Shown here piece by piece: positions 10,900 to 30,654 of a DNA stretch of 64,000 bases (its first letter is position 1; each line of letters starts with the position of its first letter). A model generated the notes under the pieces. It saw only the letters and a program-made list of their open reading frames with translations, was not told the origin of the DNA and searched no databases. The stretch spans positions 29,576,001 through 29,640,000 of the forward strand of contig CM119372.1 of assembly GCA_051294905.1 (NCBI GenBank). Reading direction: 5' to 3'. A program made the position numbers and the translations under genes. The stretch is from Botryllus schlosseri (Eukaryota).

Positions 10900-12489
10900 G
10901 TTGTAGGAGTTCATGAGTTTGCGTGTTTCAAATCACTATGTGAACATTACAATTGAGAAACGTTATTCGCAATAGCGGAAAGCACAGTAGCGTGTTTACA
11001 GACTTTGAATAATATTATCTTGATGTCAAGGTGACGAATTAACGCATTCGACTACAATTCAACTTATGTGGTGTAGTGAGTTTGATTGCGAAAAGGATTA
11101 ACCTCGCAAAGGATTAGGGTTAGAACAGAAAGTGTCAAGTTGTTGGTTTTCGAATCTTGATTTCAAGGTGACAAAATAACACATTCGAGTATGATTCAAA
11201 TTTAGTTACGCTGTGAGTCGTGAAAAGAATTAACATCACAAAGGGATTAGGGTTAGAACAGAAATATGTTACAATTTGTTGGTATTCAGGTCACCGCCGT
11301 GGGCGGTTCTGTTATTCGGTACCTATTATACTTATTATTCTTATTATATCTTACCAGTGGAAGCGGGTTCTGTGACCCACTAATTACCAAAATATTACCT
11401 TCGCGAGCGATCGACATGTCTGTAACACCAAGTCACGAGAGATAGTTATATCTGAGGCGTTATCTTGTCAGCGATCACAGGATTTGCAAGCTATTTCACA
11501 CCTATTTGAATAAGTGTTAGTTCGCGAACGCAACTATTGTTGGTTTTCGAATCACCGTCTACAACGGTTCTTGCGAGTAATTCTAACCTCTGTAACACCA
11601 AACCAAGAGAGATTAAGCAAAATATTTCTCACCTATTTGAATAAGCGTTGGTTCGCGAACGCGCCTATACCTGAACACGGTAGCATGCAACCACGCCAAT
11701 AAGAGTAAGGATATATTGATGTCACTCTCACCGTTAATGTTAGGATTGACTCGAATCGGTCATATATAATAATCTGGGATTTATGCACTAAGTATGTACT
11801 AATCACGTGACTGTTTTCTATACTTGATAAGAGCTTCTTGGAGGTACAGAACTTCAATATACAATTGAATACTATATTCATATTGAAATGAACCCGAATA
11901 TTTTCGGCTGACACTCGTCAGGGGTAATCGTCAGCAACTAGTAGAGAATTGGAAAGAACATTGTATATCAACAATCGTATCACAAAATATGACGTCACCA
12001 GCATGAAAGAGAGAGCGTTCAATATCCTATTTTTAGGTGGTACACGAACTCCTTTTGTTGACAGAGTTTTGGTTGGTGTATTTTGATAAAAGTCGACTCC
12101 AAGGCACACAAATGGAATTGTGAACGGCCCCGCCCAATGATTCGAAATCGGTCGTCTCGATAGTTATTCGCACAAATCGGATTATCCAACAGATGTTTGC
12201 CGATGGCAGAATTAATGGCCTTTGATCGATCAGCATCAATCTTAAGCGGATTAGTTAAGGGTGAGCTTTTCTGGTGCCGCCCCTGGCTCTCGCCTAAAAT
12301 GACGCCCCTGCCTCCCCCCCCCCTAAGTAGATCGCAGCAAATTTCGACATATATTCATGTTCAAGCAACCTTGTCAATAAAAATAATTACAAACAATAGG
12401 CCGCGTCTTCGCCTCACCATCTCAACGTTAATAAGGCCAAAAATTATAAAGACAAGAAATAGCGAACGATTGTATTGTGCAAATAGAAA

Positions 12490-12648
12490 ATCAATAGCTG
12501 CCTCAAAGCAAAATCGGCGATAATATCCTCAAATTCAAGTTTTTGAACGTGGTCTCTTTTTATAGACAGAATGGATAGAGCTGATAACCGATCATCATTC
12601 ATGGTAGAACGTAAATAAGACTTAATCAGTTTGAGCTTTGAGTATCTC
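12490..12648 (-). pseudogene. hAT transposase C-terminal dimerisation-domain fragment (distal half of the host element split by the 17-kb insertion)
   Basis: Translates SKLKLIKSYLRSTMNDDRLSALSILSIKRDHVQKLEFEDIIADFA, the hAT C-terminal motif. Continues from the fragment at 29889. Confidence 0.88.
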
Positions 12649-12720
12649 AGTAGTGAGGATTGAATCGTTTGTTGCCGGCCAATCAGAGAAGGCCACGTCG
12701 CCCTAATTGCCACGCCTACA

Positions 12721-12915
12721 TTGCCACATCATCCGCCCATTGCCGCACCTATAGGACGCCCCTTGCCACATCATCCGACCATTGCCGCACCTATATGACG
12801 TCCATTGCCACATCATCAGCCGCGCTCACTGCCACATCATCTGCCACGTCATCTGTGCCACATCATCAAGCGCCATACCTATAGTGCCACATCATCCATC
12901 CATTGCCACATCATC
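12721..12915 (+). repeat. Subterminal GCCACATCATC array (8 units) of the left arm; mirrored at about 29620-29830
   Basis: Seven exact gccacatcatc units plus one gccacgtcatc. A CCAAT box (ggccaatcag) lies at about 12677. Confidence 0.85.
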
Positions 12916-14792
12916 GAATCATGACTATGCGTACTGAGCTGTGTTTTGAGAATATGAATTCTCGCGTAATACACTAAACGTTGAAGTAGATTTCATAACG
13001 TCATCACAGAGGAATCAATCAACTATCTTGCTCTAGGTTGTAGGTTCAATCCCTGTAGTCACCGCATTTCATACGATTCAGCGCTTTTCATATCTTCTAA
13101 TACTTTACTCAGTCTCGTTGAAATAGCATTGTATAGTGTAAGAGTTCATTTTATTTCGAAAAAAGAGCATATCAATGATATCGTCAGTGGCGGCTCGTGA
13201 CAATATCGGGTGGTGGGGCAAGGGCCGCAAGCGACTTGTTATCAATATGACGTCACAGTAGCGTTTTTCAACGTTCATGATGGCCCCATGAATTTCCCGT
13301 AAACAATGATTTTTAACGTAGGTGCCGCGAGAGGTTTGCCGGTGGCGTGACTTGAAGTGCGGTAACAAATGTTTTATTCATTGTTTTTTATTCAAATGAT
13401 TATTTTACAAAATGTACGCGAACTAAGAATCGTTCCCATGCCACGAATCAATCATCAGGTTATCCTTAGTAGCATGCGTTATGATTTCGTGGTAGAGATT
13501 ACGCAAGCGCCGAGTAAGACTATACCAAAAATACACAGACCAACTACCTACAAAGAGCATTCGCATGACACCTTGTGGTGTTTTAATCGTTCCATGCTCA
13601 GCAATTCTGTAAAGTGCTGCAGCGCCTCCGACCCGATTTGTATATGGATTCTCGTCCCGAAAGCGAGTCAAATCGATTTGCCCTCGTCCGAAAGTGTTTG
13701 GTACACGATCCTGATGCGTTACGACCAGGAGATAGGCAATCAAAGCGGTGGCACCCATAAACGTAAAACATTATAAAAAGCCAGCTGTTATCCATGGAAG
13801 ATTGAGCTGATGCGCGTAGCAATGCAAAAAATGCGCATGCGGGTAAACTTCTTTCATTAAAACTTGTACGCTATGTCGCGATCCGCTCATGACTGCTGCG
13901 CCGTCGTAGGTTTGCGCAATAAGTTTCGACTCAACTGAATAGGGCTGTAATGTTTTTTTTAATACGTAAGAAATTCCGACAGCAGTGCGATCGTCAACAG
14001 CCACAAAGCTGTGGAATCGTTCGACTGGCATACCAAATTTCGTGAACCGAAAAATCACGACTAGTTGTGACAAACACGTAATGTCAGTTGTTTTGTCAGA
14101 CTGAATAGATAGAAATTCAGCGTCAACAATCTCGGTAAACAAATGCTGTAGATAGATGTGATATATCGAATCAAGCACATCATTTTGAATAGTCTTTGAG
14201 GTACCCTTAGCTACTGTCGCGGTGTCGAGATGTTCGCGCAAAATGCTATCAATGGAAGCCGTGTATTTAATTAGATCCAAAAATACCCCCCTATTGAGAG
14301 AGCATTCCTTCTCATCGTGGCCTCGAAGGGGCAATTCATGAACTCCAATAAATTTAATGGCATCAATCACCCGAGAGAGAACATGCCTATTCTTATCTAC
14401 AAGCTCATTGTGCTTGCAGACTGATACGCGATAACTTTCATTGAGCTGCGACATTACATTTACTCTGCCAAACAATTTATATTTAACTGCACTAGCCATG
14501 TGCACTTGGGATTTTTGGTGCGTTTTCAGACGCTCTGACAAATGCTTCAGATCGCGATAACCAATTTTGTTCCAACAAGAGCCACTGCTTCCGGTACCGG
14601 CACTGTCGAATAAAAGACAGTAAAAGCAAAACAAGGCGTTTTTATCCTCGCCATAAGTAAGCCATTCATTTTTATCGAAATGCGCTGAAGAAAAGGCACG
14701 AGTGCGCTTTCCTCCGGCGTACGATTGGATCAATGGGCAATTTCTAGGCTGATACGGACCTAGTCGCTTTACCTCTAATTTTTGCTCTAAAG

Positions 14793-16363
14793 CAGGGGTT
14801 CTCAACCCGCGGCCCGCGGGCCGCATGCGGCCCGCAGACGTATATTTTGTGGCCCGCGACATCTTTCATTATAAACGCAATTACTAATGACACGGTATTG
14901 TTACAAATTAATTTAGATACTTAGCTCTTTTATCGCACCGTCTCTGTTTCGTTTGATTACTCATTCTTGAAGACAGTGGTTCTCAAACTGGGGGCACGCG
15001 CCCTCTTTGGTGCGTGAAGCATCTGAAGGGGGCGCGAAGGTGTGGTCAACTGAAAAGAAATTCGCGCTGCGCGCAATTTATCCCTAATTCACTGTTATTT
15101 CTTTGTGTATAGTCCGAATTTCATATTTGAGAATTCTCTGATCAACGGCTATAACCTTCCATGCCATCAAACTAGCCGTTTGTATTGCTAGCATTCTGGT
15201 TGCATTTTGTTATATGACGATAAGGGGGCACGAAATTTTTCCCTATCAAAAAGGGGGGGGGGGCTTGACTAAAAAATGTTTGAGAACCACTGCTTCAATG
15301 TGCTCTCGTTTCTTGATATATGCTCGACTTCAGATTGTTATTGTTTTGAATCATTATTTGGCTGGACTCTGGTTCAAGAGAATCCCGCTTCTTAGTAGGC
15401 CTGCACTTTTAAAGAGTGTTTGACTCACTGCGAACGGTTGTTGAGATTGCCGACGACGTTACAGACGCATCGTTTAAAATTGCTTCGAATATCGCTAAAC
15501 CCAAGAAATTTGATATAGAAGGTGTGATTTCAATAAAATCGTAACATACTTTGCGAATATTTGCTGTTTTCGGAACTTAGCAGCAAGGACAACATCACCA
15601 GACAAATTTCGAAGATGCAATCGTCTGATTCAATCCTGACCAGACGAGTAACATCAATATCAGTCAATCTTTTATCGCCTGTTCTGAAACACGTTGCCGC
15701 GTAGACTACTTTTACGCAGCCTTGGATGAATCCACCGACATTGTATAACTAATTATCTGGTTGAATTTCATCAGAGTGGACATATATGCAGAGAAATACT
15801 GGCTGGGCAAACGTGGGGAGGGGACCAGCGAAAAATATCAACTTGACAAAGCTGACTTCTGTAACTATTGGTACAGTGCCCTAAGCATGAACGGAAAGGA
15901 GAAATGTTGATTGTTTTGCTCAGAAATGCCCCCAAACACCAGATTTCTTCTCATATCACTCAGAGCTCAATGTGATAATGGTCTCTGTAACGCAAAAGTT
16001 ATAGTAATTTTATACTTGCTCGCCCACGCATTGGAACCAAGAGTTCGGCTCTCTGGTGGAAGGATTTGAAGTTGCATATACCGACTTGACAACGAATGTA
16101 ATGCACGCTCCATGAAGGGATTTACATGCGCCGCTAGAAGATACACATTCTCACAAGCAGCAGCTGCAAACTTACGAACGCTGTTCATTATTACTTTATA
16201 ATGCATAGAAATGTACTAAATGCCGGTATACGACTGGTAAATCGACTACAATAGCCTAAATTTAATAGTAGCCCATGAATGCAAGGTAACATAGTTCTGC
16301 GGCCCGCAGCGTCTTTTGCTGTTAAAATGCGGCCCGTTCTACCAGGAAAGTTGAGAACCCCTG
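14793..16363 (+). mobile_element. Charlie/Buster-type hAT deletion derivative
   Basis: TIR caggggttctcaac/gttgagaacccctg; exact TSD ctctaaag; gcggcccgc repeats; decayed transposase remnants (LTRRVT, ALDESTDI). Confidence 0.92.
14974..15292. mobile_element. Small hAT MITE nested in the Charlie-type element
   Basis: TIR cagtggttctcaaac/gtttgagaaccactg; TSD degenerate (cttgaaga/cttcaatg). Confidence 0.8.
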
Positions 16364-17951
16364 CTCTAAAGGCAGCTGGCTAAACGGCGTACGGAGCAAA
16401 GATTCAACACGATTCATGTTCGCACTTGACCTGACTACTTATCTGCAGAAATGGAAATGACTATAAATCGAGAGATTGCGTATGCCTAACTGGAAAGGTC
16501 AACGAGTTCGGACACATACGCAATTGTTATCTCATAGATTGGACAAGGAAATGTCATATTGAATCCAAAACATCATTCTGAAGAACTACGGATAGCAGCC
16601 TCGGAAATTCGGTCCCGGTACAGCTTGGGAGATTCTGGCCTTGAGGCTGGAGACTGTCACACGACACATACGGCTTACGGTCTATAGTGTCTATATGTCT
16701 GCTGCAAAATCGCCTTCGGAAAATATATTACCGAATAAATACGTGGATGAAAGCCGAAAACTTGGTACACTGTTACATGAAATCATCGAGAAGTATAGCC
16801 TCATGACCGTTTTCGGTATGGTACACTGTCAAAAGTAATACGAACAGATCAACGCCGAATTTTGCGTAATATTTACTGAGGAATCGGCTGATCAAGCGAT
16901 CAGCTGTTAGCCGCCATCGAAAACGAAACAGCTATCGCGCTTGACAGGGGTTGTAATTGTGAGCAAATGGCCCGAAGGCCACCATTCCACGGTGAAATTG
17001 ACATTGGAGAATATAAAATAGAACTAAATATTTGAATGCAAACCGAGGATGTTAGTAAACTGTTTCATGATATCATCATCTCATCACCTATCTCAGTATG
17101 GAACACAGATACACCGGCTTTTGCGTGAAATCCGCAATGCGTTAGGTAGTGTCAGATCAGCGCACATCTCTACCATACTCGAACTTAATAACGAAATTGC
17201 TGCCCTAATCATTGAGTGTCAACCTTGAGACTTGGCACAGCGTTCGATACTAAAATCAAGACATACCATGTAAAAGTTCATGACGGATCTAGCTAAGGAG
17301 CATCGTTAAAATCAATGGAGACCAATACCGGCTTTGCGTGAAATATGTTTGCGATACATGACCGATCAGCACACACTCGACTTTGGAAACGGAATTACTA
17401 CCCTAAACTTTGAGTAGAAACCCTGAAACTTAGGACAGTGTTAAATACCACCATCACGACTTGACATACCAAGTTTCAAGAATTATCATGGTGTGAAACA
17501 CCATCAAAATCGACCTGTACCAGCAACGATCGACTCAACGCATATCACGGTATCCGAGTTCAGATATAGATACGATTGTTACATCACACCTTAGGGGCGA
17601 GCAAGCATATTTGCCCCGGTTGCTCGGCCATTTTACGAATAGGAGAGAGTAAAGCAACGTTTCTTAATTGTGCGCAGCTTTGAGAGAATAGATAGTGAAA
17701 GCTTGTTATGAGCGCTACCGGGGCAAGCCCCGGCTAGGCATTCACAAAGCGAAAACACAGAAGAGAATTCGATTTTCGCGGAGACTTCGCTATGTATGGG
17801 CATTTGCAAGCGAAAGCACAAGAAGAACGCGGGTTTCGCTGTGATCTCGATATATATTGAGCGCTGTGCGTCTATAAATGGTTAAATTGTTATTGAACAG
17901 AATTTTAGGTGGGGCAATGCCCCAGTTGCCCTATAGGACGAGCCGCCACTG

Positions 17952-18429
17952 GATATCGTTGATCGTTACTGCGTCGATTCACTTGCTGAAATCCTCCAGA
18001 TCGGTTGATGTTTCGAGGTACACCGCTTTGCTGCCATCCGACACTGCAATCCGAGTTCTTGCGTTCGATCTGACCGTTTTGTATGATGTAGCGATCACTG
18101 GCTTGTAGTACATACGATACGAGCGGAAGGTCGGGATTAGGAACAACTACGCTGGGCGAATAGATGACGAATTCGTCAGCCGGATTCAGAGGTTGATAAT
18201 GCTCGATCCCGTCGCGAGTATACGTAACGACCAAACCTCCTTCATGCTTCAGATTGGCTCGATATTTCTGAATGATCCCGCTTGTGGTATGTACAAAGAG
18301 TTGAGTTGAGGTCAATTCTGCTCCATTCGAGGCTTCGATACGTAATCTTGTGATGTCATTAAAAAGATACAAGTCTTTTCGACAGGGCCCGTGGGGCAGA
18401 ATAGTATCTCCACGGATTGCTAGACTCAT
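17952..18429 (-). pseudogene. Unknown intronless ORF2, left-arm copy; last codons replaced by the hAT insertion
   Basis: MSLAIRGDTILPHG...GGFQQVNRR is near-identical to 28883-29365. The native stop is separated by the insertion at 17951. Confidence 0.6.
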
Positions 18430-18445
18430 TCTTTGAAAAGAAATA

Positions 18446-19027
18446 TCAAACATAAGTACAACAGTCATCACGCAATTCCACCTCGCCATCAAATTTAGTC
18501 GAGCCTCTTCTTATGTTAGGTGTCGCATAACAGACAATACGAATACATTGCAACCCCTTCCGCTTGATGAGAAAAGGAAACGTAGGATAAAACTTTGCAT
18601 GCTCGAGCCAGGGGTCATCGCACGGCAACCAATTTTGAAACAGCCCTACGCACGAGAAACACTTTAAATGATCCTTATAGCCCAAATAGAACAATCCGCA
18701 GTCTGCGAGCTCGGCTCCGGAGGTATTGATATTATCCGGCCACCGCATGAATGTGCTTAGTCTACGAGCATAGCGTGTCATGTTATAGAAAACGGGATCA
18801 TTCAACGGGGAGACAGTTACATCTCTATGCTCCGCATAGCATTCATAAATCTTTTCCCCTCTGTTCTTTATCATAGCTTGGTACTGTTCAATGGGACCCA
18901 TCCGAGTTTCATCTTCGCTTATTTCTATGCTACTTGTGGCACCGATGCAAGCGCAGTTGGATGTAGCGTAATTTGTAGGGTCCACACTACGCTTAGGTAG
19001 CGAATCGCTTTGATCAATGTTCGAAAT
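18446..19027 (-). CDS. Single-BIR-domain (IAP-like) protein, left-arm copy; ancestral ATG appears mutated to ATT
   Basis: RLSTF..WP....LA..GLFY.G..D..KCFSC...NW...DDPW.EHAK.P is a BIR signature. Frame is open from 19027 to the stop. Fourth zinc ligand is Phe. An internal ATG (MGPIEQ) precedes the BIR. May be a pseudogene. Confidence 0.8.
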   Translation of the reverse strand: MSNIDQSDSLPKRSVDPTNYATSNCACIGATSSIEISEDETRMGPIEQYQAMIKNRGEKIYECYAEHRDVTVSPLNDPVFYNMTRYARRLSTFMRWPDNINTSGAELADCGLFYLGYKDHLKCFSCVGLFQNWLPCDDPWLEHAKFYPTFPFLIKRKGLQCIRIVCYATPNIRRGSTKFDGEVELRDDCCTYV

Positions 19028-20054
19028 TGCTATCCGAATTGATATACTCTCATGATCAGTATGCTTTATACAGATATTGAGCTATTCACCGTTGAAACAT
19101 GTGCTTGGTACCGATCGAATGATAGGCCCCCTAGGTCGTATCACGGAAAATAGAACGTCGACTGCTCACAGAAAAAGGCACGTAGCTCATATCCGTTCCT
19201 GGAACGTGTTATCAATAATTAGAATGTTAGTAAGAATGCCACGAGTACAATCACGCGGTGATGATTAATACCTAAAAAATGATTTACTCAACGACATCTT
19301 GACTCATGCGGATTATTAATTTAAAAAAATTGAACTATAGTGTATCGGAACTTAGTTTTACTTTACTGAGATTAGTTGTACTTTTCAACTAACTTGTTGT
19401 CTGTCGATACATTCATTTAATTACGATTCCGAGAAGTCGGATCGATTCCCATAATATAACGATTGAGTGCCGTCCTTTTTTTCACATCTTATACTTTAGC
19501 TGACACTTACTCAGTGTACGAGTTCATTTATTTCGAAAAAGAGCATAATATATCAATATCATTGTGCGTCATTGCATCGATTCACTTGCTGAAATCCTCC
19601 AGATCGTTTGATGTTTCGATGTCGCTTCACGAGTTCCATTCATTGTATCCATATATATCAACAAGCAGCTATGCAAATCCACACCTTACATAACTAGGAC
19701 TCTTGTATGTCATTAACATTATAGACAGCCATTCGACGATATTCAACTGGCATTGATGCTTTTGATACAGCGCAGTATGTATAACGCCACGCTGATCAAT
19801 TCAATTTCAACAATGGGAACCGCGCACGATTATATGGCCGGATTTTCGTTGAATATTGACAACAAACTTTGCTTGCTTTCAAAGCTAGTAACTAAGCATT
19901 TTTCAATATTGACCCTGTGTTCTCGGTTTCTAACTAAAATAGTTCTAATAGTTACTGGGGAGAATTCGCAACCACTTCCATCTCGCTAAATAATTCTCGC
20001 ACACCCCCTATAGCTCGTAAAGATGTCACCAATCATCTGTTCAGAGCAATAAAC

Positions 20055-20968
20055 TAGGGATGGTGTGAACTTGAGGTTCACGTTCGCGTTCTGTGTGTGA
20101 ACCTCAGAAATTTAGAGGTTCACGTTCACAAACGAACCTTGGTAGGTTCTGCACTGTGAACCTTTTTTATATATTACAATTTTAACTTCATTATAACATT
20201 TTTGGTTGAAATTTATTGCATTTCAACTGCGGGCCACTCTAGGCACGGCGCTTGCAGCATGAAAAAAATCAACACTAAACTAGCATGCACCTTGCCAATC
20301 TCAAAGCTTTGACTTGCTTTGTTACAAAAGTTTGCTCGAAATATCCAGATTTCCGTAGTGAATATTTAGTGACTCTCTACTGTAAGCTTGACCCGCAATC
20401 ACACAATATCAAGAGCGAAATACACTACAAGTAGGTAGTCAGTGAATGATGCTTATTCATTATATTCAACCAATCAATGAAATTGATATCGTTGCTTGAT
20501 GTAAAAAATCTAGCAGGCGTACGGAGTCAATCTTGACTTCATATGTTTAATGTATAATGAAAACGATTGGGGTTGGTGCGTTGGCTACTAATGTACAACT
20601 TGTTAATGGGGTAATATTAGTAGCAAGTATAGAAACCCGTTTTACACTCTGCTCAATATCAACGTAGCAATACTCAGACGCCGAATACATTCGCCCGGTC
20701 TGATCTAGACCGTTAAGTCGTAAGCTTATATTCCCTTGCAAGTCCTCGTCGAAATTGTCGGCAAAGCGACGAAAGATTCTGATTTTATGGGACTATTATA
20801 TCATTTGATGGCGCCAGTTGATACATTTGGCGACGTTTATGAAGGGTTGGAATTAGCAAAATGACGTCACGTGACGTCATGAGGTTCACGTTCATGTTCA
20901 CACAGAACCTTTCTAAAAGGTTCGCGTTCACACGAACCTGAACCTTTCAGAGGTTCACACCATCCCTA
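20055..20968. mobile_element. hAT-type MITE with GTTCAC/GTGAAC subterminal repeats
   Basis: TIR tagggatggtgtgaac/gttcacaccatcccta; exact TSD caataaac; absent from the right arm. Confidence 0.93.
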
Positions 20969-21110
20969 CAATAAACACATTTCCACGATGATTTTATATT
21001 CGTAATATACGATAATGCATCATTAATTATGCGAATCATTACCATTTGCGTAGATTAAACATCAAATTCACATATTTAGCGCAATTTGCATATTACGCTC
21101 AACGCCGAAT

Positions 21111-21718
21111 TCATTCAGTTTCACGTTTAATTTCCGGATAAAGTCTTTCGCAGTCGAGAATAGTATCATTCAGTTTTACGAGAACATTTCGGTTGCTGTT
21201 ATATGCTGAAATTAGGTTGAATTTCACATTACATCCAATAGTCCTACAGTTCCCCCGAACTTGGAAAATTGGTGATCGTCCATCGAAACCATTATAGGCT
21301 ACTCTACTTCCCTGAAGAAAAATGAGCAGCAATTCTTATACATCAGTAGCTTTCTACATAAAAACCCCTCCCATTTCAAACAATTTCCCGAATGAAATGA
21401 GTTCAGCATAACGCTCCACTCTTCTCGGGTGAGCTCAGATCGGTAGTAGACAGAAACAATATTATCTTCATATCCAAGACTTGTTGAAATTCCGTGAATC
21501 CCCGCCATTCTCATGTGAATCTCAGTCTCGTGACGCCAAAGAAATTTCTTAAGAAATTTAATGTCATTTTCCTTGCGTCTCTTCTCAAGCTCATACGGAC
21601 GGTAGTCGGATAATATATTTTTCCAGGTAGCCGGATCATTAAGATTCTCCTCTTCATGTCTTAATAGAAGCTCCACCATATTCGTTACAGTTAATCGTCT
21701 TTTCATCCTGCGAGCCAT
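21111..21718 (-). pseudogene. Unknown intronless gene of about 200 codons with one probable frameshift
   Basis: ATG-initiated 139-aa ORF (21299-21718) overlaps a 73-aa ORF in another frame (21111-21332). Protein-like composition; lies inside the Maverick-like element. No family recognised. Confidence 0.5.
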
Positions 21719-22489
21719 TTCTCTGATAGGATACGATACATAACGAATAACATTCGCTATAATATATATTCTGAATAATTTTTTTCCCTATCCATTCTCC
21801 AGGCAATTCACAAAAAAAACTATTTTCCAGAACCCTAAATAAGTGTATATCTAATTCTTTCCGAGGACTCAGACTTAACCTAAATAGAGATCAATCATTC
21901 TTACGGTACCGAAAAAACTAAACAATTCAAAAAGAAAACACAACTAGGCATAAACAAAAATTCTGCCTACATTAAATCAGCATACTCTTACCATCCTTCA
22001 AGTATAATATAGCTCCGCGAAGACAACTCAACCTTTCGTTTACCTTATGTAGCTAATTACAATCCTTCAATGTATAGACTAGTTGATAATAGCTAATTCG
22101 CGACAACACGTACCATAGCAACGTTTCAAAGCCACATGTTTATATTAGATTGTGGCTAATACTATCCTGACAGCTGACAGAGTTAGATAGAGGTTACTAG
22201 CTCTAGTTTTTTTACCAAAACGAAAACTCATCGATACTCAAGTAGAAGTAGAAGGGGCGCCATAAATTTATACTCATAGTTGTAGGATATTATGAAAATA
22301 CACCATACCGAATTTCGTCGGACATTTCCTGATGTAACACCTTTAAAACCAACGCAGTTCTATACAGACTTTTGGCTAAATCTGTTTTAGACGCAATAAT
22401 GTAAGCTGCGTCGGGTGCTGCTATAATGTTAGGAGCGAATATAGTAGAAAGTCCACGTCTGGACGCCTGTAAGCAGGTGCGCATAGTAA

Positions 22490-23789
22490 CAGGGCCGTAA
22501 CTGCCGCACCCCAAACCCCCCAATTGGGGGGGCCCGAGCTCGAAGGGGGCCCAAAATTATTTCATGAATTAGCATAAATTATAGAGTAATTTTTGAAAAT
22601 TTGTACAACTTTTTCACAATTTTTTCGCGCTGCGCGCGATTTCAAGTTGCCAAATTTCTTTATTATTGGGTACTTTTCCCCCAAGAAAAAATACGCAACA
22701 TTTATAGAAATGGGCATATTAGCGTTGGCCATTACCGCGCCACGACGAACCAAGACGTATAAAGTCTTGGACCATGCAATATGCGATTCCAAGAAGTGTG
22801 CCAGAACGATCGGCAGCGAGAAAACTTCGGCCGAAAGGGACTGCCCTTATACTGACCGAAAACTTCGTTATATATACAAATTACACATAGGTTTTGTCCA
22901 TAGGTGCCTGAATGACTGGCGCCGAATGTCATGGCAACCTGAACCTTAGAAGACAAATACCATCCCGCAGAGAAAAATGATATGGCAATGAAGAAATACC
23001 AATTTGAAATCGTGTGTACTTTTAGTTTAGTACGTTTGGGCGATTCTATTTTTTTTTTGATATAGCAGACAGGAGGTCACAAAATAACATCATTTAACGA
23101 TGTCATACCAACGGGTACGCCCGCCCGAATATGTTTAATTATTATTTACGGGCTCTAAAGTTTCGAAGACACCTCACTAAGCTATACCGGTATGAGTAGA
23201 GAGGACAAGAAATTTATAGCAATATATATGCAATTCCCGACCTTATTGACCGATTTATCATGAATTATCGAAAATTTTCGCGCATGGCGCTGGCTCACGA
23301 AACGGTACCACTATAACTTCGTGGTAAAAGTGAACAACGTGATGGGGGACGGTTTATCACCTATTAGAAGCCCATGACTCAAGTTTTGTGGGGGTGCTGT
23401 TTCGTTCCTGTGAACGGGTATACACCCGGAGATGTTTAACTATTTTCGAGGGTTCCTACCTTTTCAAACACACCTCACTCAGCTCAACCGGTAAATCAGA
23501 TTACGTGAGTAGAGAGAGGGTAAAAATTAATAGCAATATATATGCACTTCCCGATCATATTGACCGATTCATTCATGAACTATAGAAATTTCTTCGCGCT
23601 TCGCGCGGTCAGCCGAGTAAAGCTAACACACCCAACGGACACCCAATGTAGATGACATGTAGCGGTAAACAGTGTACAGCCTGAGGGGGGTCTGAGGGGC
23701 GAAGCCCCCCACAAGTAAGGTTTACCACCATATGGGGGGCCCAAGACCAACGTTTTGGAGGGGGCTGACGAAGTGCTGTTACGGCCCTG
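22490..23789 (+). mobile_element. hAT-type MITE, family C
   Basis: TIR cagggccgtaac/gttacggccctg; exact TSD catagtaa. Confidence 0.93.
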
Positions 23790-26700
23790 CATAGTAACGT
23801 AGTAAAACGCATAACAGAATTCACGCAAAAGTCGATATTGCTTTGTGATGATTTTGATGTTGCTCCATACCGATTGGGAAGATAGCAAACCTAATTTCGT
23901 AACTACATAATCCCTAGTAACGTAGCCAGACGCATAACAGAATTTACGCAAAATCGGTGTTGCTCTGGGATAATTTTGATCACTATGTTTTGATAATGAC
24001 TTGCTTCCGAGAAATAAATAACATTCATTATACGTTAGATGATACTTTTCCTTGATATTCTATTATGTGTATTTAGGGCTAATGCGACATCACTATGTTG
24101 GCGACAGGCCTGATTTGAACACACTAATTTGCGAATTAAACTTATCACCCACCACGGACACTCAATGAAGAGCACCCTGGAGCACTCACATAAATGCTCA
24201 ACAATCCTTGACATATAATATACTGATCATATAATAAGCTTACAAAACTTATACTTGAGTACTCCGAAATGTACAAGTACTTTACCTTTACACGACGTTT
24301 TTGTAAAATGAATACTAATTTTATTGAAAAATAAAAATTATCCCCCAACACGGACACTCAATGAAGAGCACCCTGAAGCATCCACGTAAAATGCTATACA
24401 ATTCTTGACATATAATATACTGGTGATGATATTAATTAACTCGTGTTTTCAACAGTATAGGGCAAGCATCAGGCAAAACTTATACTTGAGAACTCCGAAA
24501 TGTACAAGTACTTTACCTTTACACGACGTTTTTGTAAAATGATACTTTAAAATGAAGATTACACAAGTACTTCTCCACGAAGTACGAAAAATTCGATAAC
24601 ATACAAATACCACAAATTGCGCTAGCCTTCAGAGTTGATAAGTTTAATTCTTGTAACAAAGATATATGTGCACAATTTACGTTTATCGTAAGTCCTGCAC
24701 GTTCATGATTTCGTCCGAGTTTGAGTTTTAGAAAATAATATACCGACATCGCGACATCCTTCAAAAACAAAAACAACGGTCACCGCTTGAGAGACCTATC
24801 AAACGCAGGTGTAGGACATTATGACAATGGAACATATCAAATTTCATCACACATTTCATGATGGAACACCTTTAAAACTAACGCAGCTCTATACCGTCTT
24901 CGCGTGAATCTGTTTTGCGGGAGCGTATAGCACGTTGCTATGCGTACTCAACTTTAATGACGGAATTACAGATGTAATTAAGTTTCAGCACTTTTACAAT
25001 GATTCGTCTTGCTTCCTATAAAATCCCACTCGAAGCCCTCGTTATTAGGCTGTGATCTCAGTCCGAGCTATGTCTTGAAGCCTACGGAACTCTGCAAATT
25101 GTTTCGATTTATTCTGCCCGTTTTAATTTAAGATAAGGAAGTCCATTTTACTCAATTCATCGATGCCTACGGTACTCTACAAAATTTTCTGATTACTTCT
25201 CTCTATGTTAATTTATCATAAGAAAGATGATTCGAATCCTAAAGTACGAAATACTTGTTCGCTTGAGGTAAGCCGCAGCGCTTGGAGGGGAAGTTTACGA
25301 GGTATGTGGACTCATTTCGAAGGGCTCTATGCCATACGTGCATACTTTTACGCTCCAATTCGATTCCCACACATTCCATATAATTACTAACAGAACCATT
25401 GAGTACCAGCCTTGAAATTTCGCATAGTACTAGATGGCAAGTATACAATTTCATGACATCCGACAGTACGAAGGAGACTATCAAAATATCGAAAGAAGTC
25501 CTCTATACTTTTCTGAAATAATCAAGGTTTTATCAGGACTCCCTTCATATAAACTCCAGCAGAATCACCAATAACCTCTCAAGTTTACTCAATTAACTCT
25601 AATTTGATACTCGAGAACTAAATCCCTATTTTCTGCAAGTATGATAGAGGCTATCGCTCAATACTCAACGATTCGTAATTTTGCCGGAATACAAGTGCAA
25701 TTAGGGATTTAAAAGTAACTAATATAGGTGGTTATGTTTGTGGATTATTTACACTCCTACTTATCGGTTTTCAGGAGAAACTACCTACTTTTAGGACTCT
25801 ATATTTTAAAGTAGTTTGAGGTTACGTTTGTATCACCTTGACAAGTGCTATTATCAAAAACAGCTTTTACTAAACTCTTACACTTTCACTAAATGTCTAC
25901 ACTGAATATTGTAAAGTAGATAGTAAAGGAAATGTATTAACATAAGGTAAGCGAGAAGCGTGCAAATTTCGATTGCATACAAATACCACAAACTGTGCTA
26001 ACTTTCAGAGTTGTTAAGTATAGAAGTACTCGTACTTCTTGAGAGTACCCAAGTAGGTTTTTTGCCTACATGTACCAAATACTCTCAAGTCCTTATGATA
26101 TTGGAGTACATCAACTTCATGATAACTACAGTATTAAACATAAATATACCTAGAGTACTAACGTTTTACTTACTCGGAAATGACTACTTCTACCTTATTT
26201 TAAAGGATTCCTCGCTCGAAGCGAAATTTTATGTGGTTTTTGGATAATATCCAAGATGTAGGCTCACTTTGAAGGGTATTTCGTACAACTCAATTATTGC
26301 GCAGTGAGAGTTTGCAAATTCTCGATGTATTTTTGTTATTTTTATTGCTATAAGTCATTCTGCAGCGCGAAAATGCGTCGTAGGATTTATATGAAACTGG
26401 CACCACTCATCAAGACCACCGAAAACAGTACATTTCAACATTTAGTAGCAGTAAATTGCTAGTAAAGTACAAGAAGTGATGATTTCCGAGTGAGTTAAAA
26501 AGTAAGTACTGAAGGTATAGTCTACCAGAAGACCGAAAACTCCGAAATAGAAGTAGATGCAGTGTAAATAGGTAATCACTTGATTAAGTATAGTGCAACC
26601 AGATAAAACCTATACTTGAGTACTACAAAATGCACGAGTACTTTGATGTCGACTCCCTCCGCGTAAAAGTGACTACGGGTTGAGAATACTTTTACCGATA

Positions 26701-27115
26701 CTCGACAGTTTATGTTTTAGGTAAAATTCGCAAACCAAGTAATTTCATAAACAAAAGCTAATTAAATGAATTCACTCGAATGTACTATGCCGCGCTGATA
26801 AGATTAATTATAATATACTTATCATGTTACAGTGTTTTTTCTAGCGGAGAAAATCTTTAAAATGTAGTAAGCAGGCCGATATGAAGTTATTCGTTGAGCT
26901 GAATAAACATGAAAAATACTCCCGCGCCCCGAAATTTATGTATAATCTGAATTATATTTTCTGGGGAAAGTATTATCAAACGTATAATGAATGTTATTTA
27001 TTTTTGGAATATTAGTCCCAAATACACATAATAGAATATCTAAGGAAAGTATCATCTAACGAAGTTTCATAATAAACATGAAAATACCTGGTGTCGTTGA
27101 GTTGAATAAACATAA

Positions 27116-27191
27116 AAAATATTCCCGCGCCCACCTAAACCTAACTCTCTAACTCTTCCTAACCCTACAACCAGGGGCGCGGGAATATTTT
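27116..27191. repeat. 17-bp perfect stem with a C-rich (ctaacc-like) loop at the inner edge of the right arm
   Basis: aaaatattcccgcgccc...gggcgcgggaatatttt. Confidence 0.8.
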
Positions 27192-28282
27192 ACATATATT
27201 ACGAATATAAAGTCATCGTGGAAATGTGTTTATTGCTCTGAACAGATGATTGGTGTTATATTTACGAGCTATAGGGGGTGTTGCGAGAATTATTTAGCGA
27301 GATGGAAGTGGTTGCGAATTCTCCCCAGTAACTATTAGAACTATTTTAGTTAGAAACCGAGAACACAGGGTCAATATTGAAAAATGCTTAGTTACTAACT
27401 CTGAAAGCAAGCAAAGTTTGTTGTCAATATTCAACGAAAATCCGGCCATATAATCGTGCGCGGGTCCCATTGTTGAAATTGAATTGATCAGCGTGACGTT
27501 ATACATACTGCGCTGTATCGAAAGCATCAATGCCAGTTGAATATCGTCGAATGGCTGTCTATAATGTTAATGACATACAAGAGTCCTAGTTATCTAAGCT
27601 GCGGATTTGCATAGTTGCTTGTTGATATATATGGATACAAGAATGGAACTCGTGAAGCGACATCGAAACATCAAGCGATCTGAAGGATTTCAGCAAGTGA
27701 ATCGATGCAATGACGCACAATGATATCATTGATATATAATGCTCTTTTTCGAAATAAATGAACTCGTACACTATACAATGCTATTTCAATTAGACTGAGT
27801 AAGTGTCAGCTAAAGTATAAGACGTGAAAAAAAAGGTCAGCACTGAATCGTTATATTATGGGAATCGATCCGACTTCTCGGAATCGTAAATAAATGAAAG
27901 TATCGACAGACAACAAGTTAATTGAAAAGTACAACTAATCTCAGTAAAGTAAAACTAAGTTCCGATACACTATAGTTCAATTTTTTTTAATTAATAATCC
28001 GCATGAGTCAAGATGTCGTTAAGTAAATCATTTTTTAGGTATTAATCATCACCGCGTGATTGTACTCGTGGCATTCTTACTAACATTCTAATTATTGATA
28101 ACACGTACCAGGAACGGATATGAGCTACGTGCCTTTTTCTGTGAGCAGTCGACGTTCTATTTTCCGTGATACGACCTAGGGGGCCTATCATTCGATCGGT
28201 GCCAAGCACATACTTCAACGGTGCATAGCTCAATATCTGTATAAAGCATACTGATCATGAGAGTATATCAATTCGGATAGCA

Positions 28283-28866
28283 ATGTCGAACATTGATCAA
28301 AGCGATTCGCTACCTAAGCGTATAGTGTGGACCCTACAAATTACGCTACATTCAACTGCGCTTGCATCGGTACCACAAGTAGCATAGAAATAAGCGGAGA
28401 TGAAACTCGGATGGGTCCCATTGAACAGTACCAAGCTATGATAAAGAACAGAGGGGAAAAGATTTAGGAATGCTATGCGGAGCATAGAGATGTAACTGTC
28501 TCCCAGTTGAATGATCCCGTTTTCTATAACATGACACGCTATGCTCGTAGACTAAGCACATTCATGCGGTGGCCGGATAACATCAATACCTCCGGAGCCG
28601 AGCTCGCAGACTACGGATTGTTCTATTTGGGCTATAAGGGTCATTTAAAGTGTTTCTCGTGCGGAGGGCTGTTTCAAAATTGGTTGCCGTGCGATGACCC
28701 CTGGCTCGAGCATGCAAAGTTTTATCCTACGTTTCCTTTTCTCATCAAGCGGAAGGGGTTGCAATATATTCGTAATGTCTGTTATGCGACACCTAACATA
28801 AGAAGAGGCTCGACTAAATTTGATGGCGAGGTGGAATTGCGTGATGACTGTTGTACTTATGTTTGA
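28283..28866 (+). pseudogene. BIR-domain (IAP-like) gene, right-arm copy, disabled upstream of the BIR
   Basis: Keeps ATG at 28283 but has 2 extra nt near 28321 and TAG at 28465 (TAT in the left copy). The BIR-coding part stays open. Confidence 0.85.
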
Positions 28867-28882
28867 TATTTCTTTTCAAAGA

Positions 28883-29365
28883 ATGAGTCTAGCAATCCGA
28901 AGAGATACTATTCTGCCCCACGGGCTCTATCGAAAAGACTTGTATCATTTTAATGACATCACAAAATTACGTATCGAAGCCTCGAATGGAGCAGAAGTGA
29001 CCTCGGATCAACTCTTTGTACATTCCACAAGCGGGATCATTCAGAAATATCGAGCCACTCTGAAGCATGAAGGAGGTTTGGTCGTTACGTATACTCGCGA
29101 CGGGATCGAGCATTATCAACCTCTGAATCCGGCTGACGAATTCGTCATCTATTCGCCCAGCGTAGTTGTTCCTAATCCCGACCTTCCGCTCGTATCGTAT
29201 GTACTACAAGCCAGTGATCGCTACATCAAACAAAACGGTCAGATCGAACGCAAGAACTCGGATCGCAGTGTCGGATGGCAGCAAAGCGGTGTACCTCGAA
29301 ACATCAACCGATCTGGAGGATTTCAGCAAGTGAATCGACGCAATAACGATAAACGATATCATTGA
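28883..29365 (+). CDS. Unknown 160-aa intronless ORF2, right-arm copy
   Basis: ATG 16 nt after the BIR stop; open in both arms; AATAAA at about 29382. No family recognised. Confidence 0.6.
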   Translation: MSLAIRRDTILPHGLYRKDLYHFNDITKLRIEASNGAEVTSDQLFVHSTSGIIQKYRATLKHEGGLVVTYTRDGIEHYQPLNPADEFVIYSPSVVVPNPDLPLVSYVLQASDRYIKQNGQIERKNSDRSVGWQQSGVPRNINRSGGFQQVNRRNNDKRYH

Positions 29366-29888
29366 TATGCTCTTTTTTCGAAATAAAATGAACTCTTACA
29401 CTATGCAATGCTATTTCAATGAGACTGAGTAAAGTGTTAGAAGATATGAAAAGCGCTGAATCGTATGAAATGCGGTGACTACAGGGATCGAACCTACAAC
29501 CTAGAGCAAGATAGTTGATTGATTCCTCTGTGATGACGTTATGAAATCTACTTCAACGTTTAGTGTATTACGCGAGAATTCATATTCTCAAAAAACAGCT
29601 CAGTACGCATAGTCATGATTCGATGATGTGGCAATGGATGGATGATGTGGCACTATAGGTGTGGCGCTTGATGATGTGGCACAGATGACGTGACAGATGA
29701 TGTGGCAGTGAGCGCGGCTGATGATGTGGCAATGCACGTCATGTAGGTGCGGCAATGGGCGGATGATGTGGCAAGGGGCGTCCTATAGGTGCGGCAATGG
29801 GTGGATGATGTGGCAATGTAGGCGTGGCAATTAGGGCGGCGTGGCCTTCTCTGATTGGCCGGCAACAAATGATTCAATCCTCACTACT

Positions 29889-30500
29889 AAGATCGCCTCA
29901 CAGAGCTCGCAATTGAAACACCAATGGTCAGATAAAGTTTTAGACACGAGCATAAATATGGTGTCGAATCAAGTAGCATTGCATTAACTAAACACTGTAA
30001 AACATCAAACGCTTTTGCACTACGATCAAACTTGGCTTCACTGCTCCGCACCAGCCTCTTACCCTTTCAAAATCTCAAGTTGAACAACTTCATATGATCA
30101 TATTTTAATTTGTGTCCGTTCTAGAGGCCTCATATTGATTTGTACGAAAAGCCAGCAATATTCTGATTCATACGATTCGAAGGTATAAGGCATGACAATT
30201 TTCGCAGCTAACTCCAAAAAGTCCACCTCGTTGTCATAAGTGCTTCTAAAAGCGCTGGTGAATAAATTGTGACTTTCGCTTTGCCGCAGTGCGTGGGAAT
30301 TCAAAAATCCAAACATATCATTCAAGTGGTGTATGCCGGTAAACCTAGTTTCAGCTTCAAGTTTAAATCTGTCCAAAGCTTGAAACATGCATCGTCTAAC
30401 TTCTTCAACAACACTGAGGCCAGTATCTTCTGATTGTTCGCCAGCATTCTCCTTTTTCTGCGAACTCTCCGAACAATCAGCACTGGCGGCTATTTCGGAG
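29889..30500 (-). pseudogene. hAT transposase fragment (proximal half of the host element)
   Basis: KKENAGEQSEDTGLS..EEVRRCMFQALDRF..RF..LNDMFGFL, and PYLCSCLKLYLTIGVSIAS..RS directly abutting the insertion. Confidence 0.85.
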
Positions 30501-30654
30501 TGGTTCCATCGCCATGTTAACATATTAATTCTTGTTTTCGGAATCAGCGCGACACTAGCTTTCGATTGACACCCGCTTGATTAAATTTTAGCTCACGGGA
30601 CGCCAGCTATAGGACCACCAATTAACGCTTCTTTTAGCCGGCTGTGTACCCTGT

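Follow-up and report, generated by a model that had tools for sequence, protein, structure and literature searches.

Known relatives of a Maverick/Polinton element in Botryllus schlosseri

Maverick/Polinton elements with (AGT)2//(ACT)2 ends were reportedly described by Kapitonov and Jurka in 2006. The DNA analysed here (the window) is a stretch of 64,000 nucleotides (nt) from Botryllus schlosseri (assembly GCA_051294905.1, contig CM119372.1, positions 29,576,001 to 29,640,000 of the forward strand). A unit with ends of this type lies at window positions 12649-29888, and is referred to here as the window element. It is very probably a defective, non-autonomous member of a resident and recently active Maverick/Polinton family, and its long inverted arms would have been made by copying back of the left end. 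The feature is genuine, but as a relative of a known element type it is rather ordinary.

Vertebrate Mavericks, in the study by Barreat and Katzourakis (2021, PMC8097293), have the (AGT)2//(ACT)2 end motif and 6-bp duplications. A Polinton by definition encodes a polymerase and an integrase, according to the abstract of PMC5499653. The window element has neither of the two genes; therefore, under that definition, it is a derivative and not a Polinton proper. It shares with the Maverick/Polinton elements the AGTAGT...ACTACT termini, the terminal inverted repeats, and the 6-bp duplication, and the core genes are present in sister copies with the same ends. It differs from them in being coreless, and in having 2.7-kb gene-bearing arms that are both derived from the left end.

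Two preprints describe features of a similar kind. The butterfly polintons have terminal repeats of ~2 kb that contain whole genes, with two copies per insertion (10.1101/2025.02.07.637071). In those polintons, hexon and adenain, both core genes, lie within the repeats, and the remaining genome is retained; the repeats of the window element, by contrast, hold an accessory BIR cassette, and the core is gone. The leafhopper preprint annotates adintoviruses with a baculoviral-type IAP gene (10.64898/2026.07.28.741253), which is likewise a BIR/IAP accessory gene in a Polinton-class genome. Those adintoviruses are insect virus genomes from RNA-seq; in the present family, the gene encodes a RING-less single-BIR protein of 151 amino acids (aa); it is located next to the left end in integrated copies and is followed by an orphan open reading frame (ORF). 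A preliminary description of this locus had proposed an undescribed system. This proposal was given up, since gene-bearing ~2-kb polinton repeats and an adintovirus IAP gene are already in these preprints.

Defective adenovirus genomes with long inverted repeats were reportedly described by Daniell in 1976. In a further source (PMC5033970), incomplete adenovirus particles hold left-end DNA, and the packaging repeats are located near the left end. The adenovirus, as presented there, and the Maverick family are both linear replicons with protein priming and terminal repeats; in both, a cis element is repeated close to the end, and left-end sequence is over-represented among the sub-genomic molecules. 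They differ in that the motif array of the Maverick family is inside the terminal repeat at both ends, not the left only, and in that the Maverick family is known here from genomic DNA alone. The adenovirus behaviour serves as a model for the copy-back or panhandle account of the window arms given below. For non-autonomous or defective Polintons and Mavericks, the only relevant passage in the literature searched concerns the Tlr1 elements; Repbase, which possibly has such entries, was not covered. Within that literature, non-autonomous Mavericks/Polintons are barely documented.

Structure of the window element and its insertion site

The window sequence reads AGTAGT at 12649-12654 and ACTACT at 29883-29888, so that the unit has the bounds given in the preliminary description. 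The left 2.7 kb of the unit reappear in inverted form as its right arm. As also described earlier, this becomes apparent after removal of two nested insertions, each flanked by an 8-bp duplication; the arms, ~2.7 kb each, are then ~97% alike. A repeat search found seven colinear inverted segments (94-98% complementary), which pair 12649-13184, 17952-20054, and 20969-21009 with 27195-29888. The arm-versus-arm alignment showed 13 mismatches over 536 nt, and 57 mismatches with 6 gap openings over 2,134 columns. The divergence between the arms is ~2.6-4%, with ~70 differing positions. The features of the window element and its flanks are as follows.

12447-12648, minus strand: left flank, C-terminal part of a decayed hAT transposase (..SKLKLIKSYLRSTM..); TATCTC at 12643-12648 is the first target copy
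12649-29888, no strand: whole non-autonomous Maverick/Polinton derivative (very probably), 17,240 bp (11,543 bp once both nested insertions and their duplications are subtracted)
12649-13184, plus strand: left arm, outer part, with AGTAGT, then the variable nt 7-30, then the family-conserved block
12722-12915, minus strand: left GATGATGTGGCA array, 8 copies (7 exact, one with 1 mismatch), 75-270 bp from the end
13185-17951, no strand: nested insertion 1, hAT-like, 4,767 bp, with a 13-bp terminal repeat CAGTGGCGGCTCG and an 8-bp duplication GATATCGT
13774-14865, minus strand: ORF of the nested hAT, matching DUF4371 in Pfam
17908-18510, minus strand: left downstream ORF, of family length 187 aa; the nested hAT lies just before the stop codon and extends the frame to 201 aa
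17952-20054, plus strand: left arm, middle part, with the BIR cassette
18449-19081, minus strand: left BIR frame, open, first Met at codon 61; the last Cys of CX2CX16HX6C is lost (TFPF, versus TCPF/ACPF in the sisters)
20055-20968, no strand: nested insertion 2, 914 bp, with a 16-bp terminal repeat TAGGGATGGTGTGAAC and an 8-bp duplication CAATAAAC; no ORF of at least 90 aa
20969-21009, plus strand: left arm, inner end
21010-27194, no strand: non-palindromic centre, 6,185 bp; no family match in any ORF
27195-29888, minus strand: right arm, inverted copy of the left end
28229-28866, plus strand: right BIR frame, with a stop at codon 79 (28465-28467) and the same Cys-to-Phe change
28802-29365, plus strand: right downstream ORF, 187 aa, open
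29622-29815, plus strand: right GATGATGTGGCA array, 7 exact copies, mirroring the left array
29889-30580, minus strand: right flank, upstream continuation of the same hAT remnant (..LTIGVSIASSVRRS); AAGATC at 29889-29894 is the second target copy

The seven inverted segments pair as follows.

12644-13184 with 29353-29893: 541 nt, 97%
17952-18989 with 28323-29360: 1038 nt, 97%
18983-19482 with 27828-28327: 500 nt, 97%
19556-19641 with 27641-27726: 86 nt, 98%
19643-20008 with 27275-27640: 366 nt, 97%
20001-20054 with 27228-27281: 54 nt, 94%
20969-21009 with 27195-27235: 41 nt, 98%

The two flanks were searched genome-wide (here and below, in one 495-Mb eukaryotic assembly), giving 665 and 800 candidates, with 40 scored in each case; sister hAT copies thus number in the hundreds. 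At several loci, e.g. on C13, C10, C6, C8, and C15, the two flank matches overlap by 6 bp. The uninterrupted site, which reads ...TTTGAG, AAGCTC, and GCCTCACA in succession, was present in all nine sister hAT copies fetched; therefore, the target duplicated in the window is exactly 6 bp (AAGCTC). The window element was integrated as a single unit into a hAT copy, with a 6-bp target duplication. The nine uninterrupted sisters thus bear out the earlier view that the flanks are halves of one hAT copy and that the unit was inserted as a whole. Read outward from the ends of the element, the flanks also show a 4-of-5 inverted match (ATCTC / AAGAT).

Termini and cis sequences across the genome

The terminal 536 bp of the window element recur across the genome. 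The search gave 818 candidates, with 40 of them scored; among the 52 matches listed, several are arranged as inverted pairs 8-24 kb apart. All of the aligned family ends (21 of 21) start with AGTAGT, and perfect 6-bp duplications were found in all six sisters with both ends read (TATAGC, CCCTGC, GTTACT, ACTATA, GCGATG, and AATATA). Sister copies with the same termini, which the preliminary description had envisaged, are thus present in the genome. The target repeat of one sister has an uninterrupted paralogue inside the window, at 23221-23226.

A family-conserved block starts from nt 31 onward and is present at both ends of the window element. Between this block and the invariant AGTAGT, nt 7-30 of the family ends are hypervariable (12655-12678 and 29859-29882 in the window). 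Two of the relatives considered below, D and E, are 99.3% alike in the body, yet unlike at most of the nt 7-30 positions. These positions are identical at both ends of each palindromic copy, but differ between the two ends of the full-length copy described below. The motif GATGATGTGGCA occurs in 15 copies, versus 0.40 expected by chance, and 15 copies were reached in 0 of 100 shuffles. All copies lie 75-270 bp from an end, in uniform orientation relative to that end, and their offsets are conserved in the sister copies. The terminal inverted repeat is formed by the 2.7-kb arms in the window element, versus ~150-260 bp in the full-length sister. A T-arm-like string is present in the terminal region of the element; tRNA and Rfam scans of 12000-30500 gave 0 hits.

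Autonomous sister copies and their core genes

One full-length sister of 17,644 bp, bounded by ACTATA, has the same ends as the window element. From the left, it contains the BIR gene and the downstream ORF, whose transcription runs in both cases towards the left end; next come ORFs of 424 and 1294 aa, a Pox_A32-type ATPase (PF04665, E 8.6e-9), an rve integrase (PF00665, E 1.9e-14), a 299-aa and a 245-aa ORF, a 425-aa ORF, and a 155-aa ORF. The right part of the sister, after the 155-aa ORF, consists of ~2.4 kb of ~480-bp tandem repeats.

The 1294-aa ORF (L043:3805-7686), a putative polymerase, was located by walking inward from two solo termini. It contains FDFES, NSSRYD, YNEGD, DANALY, KTIGNSAFG, and TDTDS, which we take to be exonuclease and polymerase motifs as in the family B polymerases. 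In the ESM Atlas, the clusters nearest to it have a score of 0.97, and PF03175 is found in 96-100% of their members. Near the N-terminus there is a Cys motif, presumably OTU-like. At ~aa 818-867, a weak RAP/endonuclease-like insert was noticed. There are 37 genomic matches to the putative polymerase; 20 of them are essentially full-length at 95-100% identity, and 17 of these 20 are stop-free. A second polymerase lineage at 62% identity has eight matches, seven of them stop-free (e.g. C16:14437283-14441149), and additional matches were found at 72-79% identity. Therefore, several Maverick lineages coexist in the genome. At seven or more loci, a terminus lies ~3.4-3.5 kb from a polymerase match in matching orientation.

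The 425-aa ORF was modelled at pLDDT 92.6 and pTM 0.90. The model matches the major capsid proteins of Sputnik, iridovirus, PBCV-1, and mavirus (E 1e-16 to 1e-14, probability 1.00), and the ORF is predicted from this fold to be a double jelly-roll capsid protein. An exhaustive HMMER search found 4,599 sequence relatives of the ORF; word-based homologue searches were shallow and gave 2 hits with the capsid ORF as query and 1 with the BIR ORF. The two ORFs upstream of the capsid gene, of 299 aa (L044:139-1035) and 245 aa (L044:1020-1754), are ~20% identical by tblastn and have no family match. They are distant paralogues of each other, and may be duplicated minor capsid or penton genes. The 424-aa ORF (L043:2148-3419), directly upstream of the polymerase gene, has no family match. 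PHROGs gave nothing for the polymerase, the 155-aa ORF, or the two ORFs before the capsid gene.

Copies that share the ends of the window element thus encode a polymerase, an integrase, an ATPase, and a capsid protein, the first and the last as predicted above. The termini are in this way tied to the Polinton core genes, as the preliminary description had supposed. In the window element itself, Pfam searches of 49 stop-to-stop ORFs of at least 65 aa matched BIR twice and the DUF4371 of the nested hAT, and nothing else. A tblastn search with 11 ORFs of the full-length sister matched only the two BIR-cassette ORFs. The polymerase, the rve integrase, the A32-like ATPase, and the double jelly-roll capsid are each absent from the window element by Pfam and/or sister-ORF tblastn, and the 155-aa ORF that follows the capsid gene in the sister has no tblastn match in it. 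These searches agree with the earlier statement that no replication or capsid core is visible.

Foldback elements resemble the window element in their long inverted arms, their internal tandem repeats, and their lack of genes. The window element might accordingly belong to another kind of transposon, either foldback or a DDE superfamily with 6-bp duplications (e.g. IS3EU-like), and be Maverick-like at its tips only. Foldback (FB-type) transposons have a 9-bp target duplication, arms made of tandem subrepeats, and end sequences of their own. The window element has a 6-bp duplication and shares its end sequences with the autonomous Maverick copies; ~200-bp tandem units do occur in the relatives. 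Moreover, in full-length copies with 6-bp duplications at their bounds, the same termini, subterminal block, and BIR cassette form one continuous stretch of DNA with the genes for the polymerase, integrase, ATPase, and capsid. An origin from another transposon kind is therefore extremely improbable.

BIR cassette and downstream ORF

Of 28 family ends examined, 14 have the BIR region (at least 1,170 bp) immediately inside the terminus. Identity among copies is 94-95% in this region, versus 79-87% in the terminal 536 bp. In a set of 15 family copies, the BIR frame has a pN/pS of 0.17 and the downstream ORF one of 0.35, versus 0.77 for the stretch upstream of the first Met. Therefore, the BIR frame and the downstream ORF are under purifying selection in the family. 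The BIR protein of the family, ~151 aa long, has one BIR and lacks a RING. Its closest similarity is to the BIR domains of NAIP, cIAP1, and XIAP (E 3e-40 to 1e-21). An anti-apoptotic role of the family protein is plausible. The downstream ORF (187 aa; L043:804-1364 in the sister) overlaps the end of the BIR frame and is conserved in the family. It has no homologue among 5.8 billion proteins within 110-352 aa, and no usable ESM Atlas hit.

PF00653 matches both arm copies of the window element (E 3e-15 and 7.9e-15). The fourth zinc ligand is Phe in both of them, versus Cys in all 15 other family ends. The arm-to-arm differences have a non-synonymous to synonymous ratio of 6:1 in the BIR frame and 14:2 in the downstream ORF. 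Judged by their sequences, both window BIR copies are degenerate, and an anti-apoptotic role cannot be claimed for the window copy. The full-length copy has the BIR gene once, on the left. The gene is standing equipment of the family, and not cargo captured by the window element. The preliminary description had proposed that the element duplicated an anti-apoptotic cassette into its arms. The presence of a BIR cassette in both arms was correct; the proposal needs revision in that the cassette is the left-end gene of the family and not an acquisition, and that neither copy is intact.

Non-autonomous relatives and the origin of the arms

Seven non-autonomous elements were compared: the window element and the copies A, B, C, D, E, and H. 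In all seven, sequence that is specific to the left of the full-length copy, beyond its ~150-260-bp terminal repeat, is present on both arms. Both termini are thus derived from the same end, as in copy-back defective genomes, in seven of seven elements that are not independent of each other. This left-end sequence on both arms points to copy-back during replication.

The elements can be arranged in a series. In the window element the arms measure 2.7 kb and the centre 6.2 kb; C has 1.6-kb arms, 98.9% identical; the arms of B are 99.6% identical over 5,066 bp. The elements A, D, and E (L031+L032, L036+L037, and L038+L039) are near-complete palindromes of ~15 kb, with arrays of ~200-bp units and a few hundred bp between the arms. 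They are 98.3-99.3% identical and lack ORFs of at least 150 aa; each is on a different chromosome and has its own duplication. Therefore, gene-less derivatives can be mobilised in trans. The elements B and C have the same BIR-bearing double-left-end layout as the window element, with perfect duplications, at other loci. The lengths recorded are 8.4, ~9.7, 11.5 (the window element without its insertions), 14.7, 14.8, 14.9, and 15.1 kb; the full-length copy, at 17.6 kb, exceeds them all. As these lengths do not settle on one size, the idea of a packaging size constraint was dropped.

The centre of the window element is composed of several pieces. Those at 24645-25033 and 25981-26921 are common to the interiors of six other non-autonomous copies, and 21010-22276 runs on colinearly from the left arm in three diverged relatives. 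Because of this colinearity, the left inner boundary is merely the end of the duplicated segment, and the real inner breakpoint is 27194/27195. A single copy of the ~200-bp tandem unit of the relatives is present at 24803-24969. Two high-copy short repeats were also noted in the centre. One is located at 22490-22900, with ~30 listed matches at 91-96% identity (6,597 candidates for a 1,891-base query containing it). The other, at 26900-27191, is a small foldback of ~292 bp (1,137 candidates for a 601-base query containing it).

The window element has the cis ends of the autonomous copies and the duplication of the family at its insertion site, and it lacks their genes. As cis parts it retains the two (AGT)2 termini along with the subterminal block and the GATGATGTGGCA arrays; beyond these, it has only two decaying BIR cassettes and the shared centre. 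The integrase, and the polymerase if the element replicated, would have been supplied in trans by an autonomous copy. The same-ended autonomous copies support the earlier proposal of a defective Polinton moved in trans, with the supply for the window element itself being inferred. The long arms may have formed before integration, during protein-primed replication of the linear DNA. The polymerase might have copied back along the left end through template switching; or else a damaged right end might have been repaired in a panhandle. Both routes would turn the two termini into left ends, and integration by the helper integrase would follow. After integration there would have been only decay: the arms diverged, two transposons entered the left arm, and the BIR copies gathered mostly amino-acid-changing differences.

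The main rival to copy-back is recombination of two co-resident element genomes, either with head-to-head left ends or illegitimate, followed by helper integration. It would be expected to give an identical product: one clean integration of a molecule with left ends on both sides of a non-palindromic centre. The centre of the window element is a mosaic of pieces from other non-autonomous copies, which shows that recombination among family members happens, and the lack of microhomology at the breakpoint also counts in its favour. For A, B, D, and E, however, which are near-complete palindromes with a few hundred bp between the arms, a single-molecule fold-back is simpler. Recombination of two molecules is considered unlikely.

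Several observations weigh against the reading of the window element as a left-end copy-back derivative of a Maverick family. The target copies in the window, TATCTC and AAGATC, agree at three of six letters, and each is also unlike AAGCTC; this change is far above what the arm divergence predicts. The inner breakpoint 27194/27195 has no microhomology and no clean nested-insertion boundary. It is crossed by none of the other genomic matches listed (0 of 52); therefore, the window form was not seen to have moved again. The seven left-end derivatives are interrelated, and represent fewer than seven independent events. PF03175 was unmatched by Pfam both genome-wide and on the 1294-aa ORF, and the ORF had no match in a PDB sequence search. 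The genome-wide search is empty because the Pfam model misses the polymerase of this Maverick family; the putative identity of the ORF draws on the motifs and the Atlas look-alikes. The 155-aa ORF, a protease candidate, has no Pfam or PHROG match. It has an H-W containing motif which we take to be adenain-like; this motif is the sole support for a protease, and no family match confirms it. The copy-back step itself would follow from the anatomy of the elements alone. Finally, the support for the junctions is thin, as it comes from short contigs of one run, possibly of the assembly's own sample.

This thin support, the repeat-dense region, and the imperfect target duplication would also be compatible with arms made by a local inverted duplication after integration, or with an assembly artefact. 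The right arm, however, stops exactly at ACTACT and abuts the hAT continuation with six duplicated bases, which a later duplication would not recreate. The sisters B and C share the layout elsewhere, with perfect duplications. The ~70 arm differences and the two private insertions in one arm are unlike a collapsed or mirrored assembly. In the read data (four runs, all short contigs), contigs of single-copy depth (~13) bridge 12614-12707 and 27162-27383 with zero mismatches. A local duplication or misassembly is very unlikely, and was already largely refuted by these results. An empty allele was also sought in the contigs. Joints that skip ~17.25 kb (12632-12642 to 29896-29956) had multi-copy depth and were rejected; their intervening letters, where given, are as in the uninterrupted hAT sisters (AAGCT, or TGAGCTTTGAG), which indicates paralogous hAT copies.

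A left-end copy-back derivative therefore remains the best explanation for the window element. A further and more tentative idea, which we hold to be doubtful, is that the double-left-end elements are defective satellite genomes of a living Maverick virus, made by copy-back in protein-primed replication, propagated and integrated by means of helper proteins, and with nt 7-30 rewritten in each cycle. Such rewriting would explain the bodies that are 99% alike with differing nt 7-30, and the identical ends within each palindromic copy. The window element would then be an early, partly folded-back fossil.

Significance of the Maverick family

The family pattern, with the left-end series, the BIR-plus-orphan cassette, and the hypervariable nt 7-30, is more interesting than the decayed fossil in the window. 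Genome scans that rely on PF03175 overlook the whole family. The BIR gene under purifying selection and its orphan neighbour are standing equipment of an animal Maverick family. The genome holds many copies with an open polymerase beside graded gene-less derivatives that keep two left ends. Because of this coexistence, it offers a natural system for the study of end replication, of the cis sequences that are sufficient for mobilisation, and of the defective parasites of virus-like transposons.

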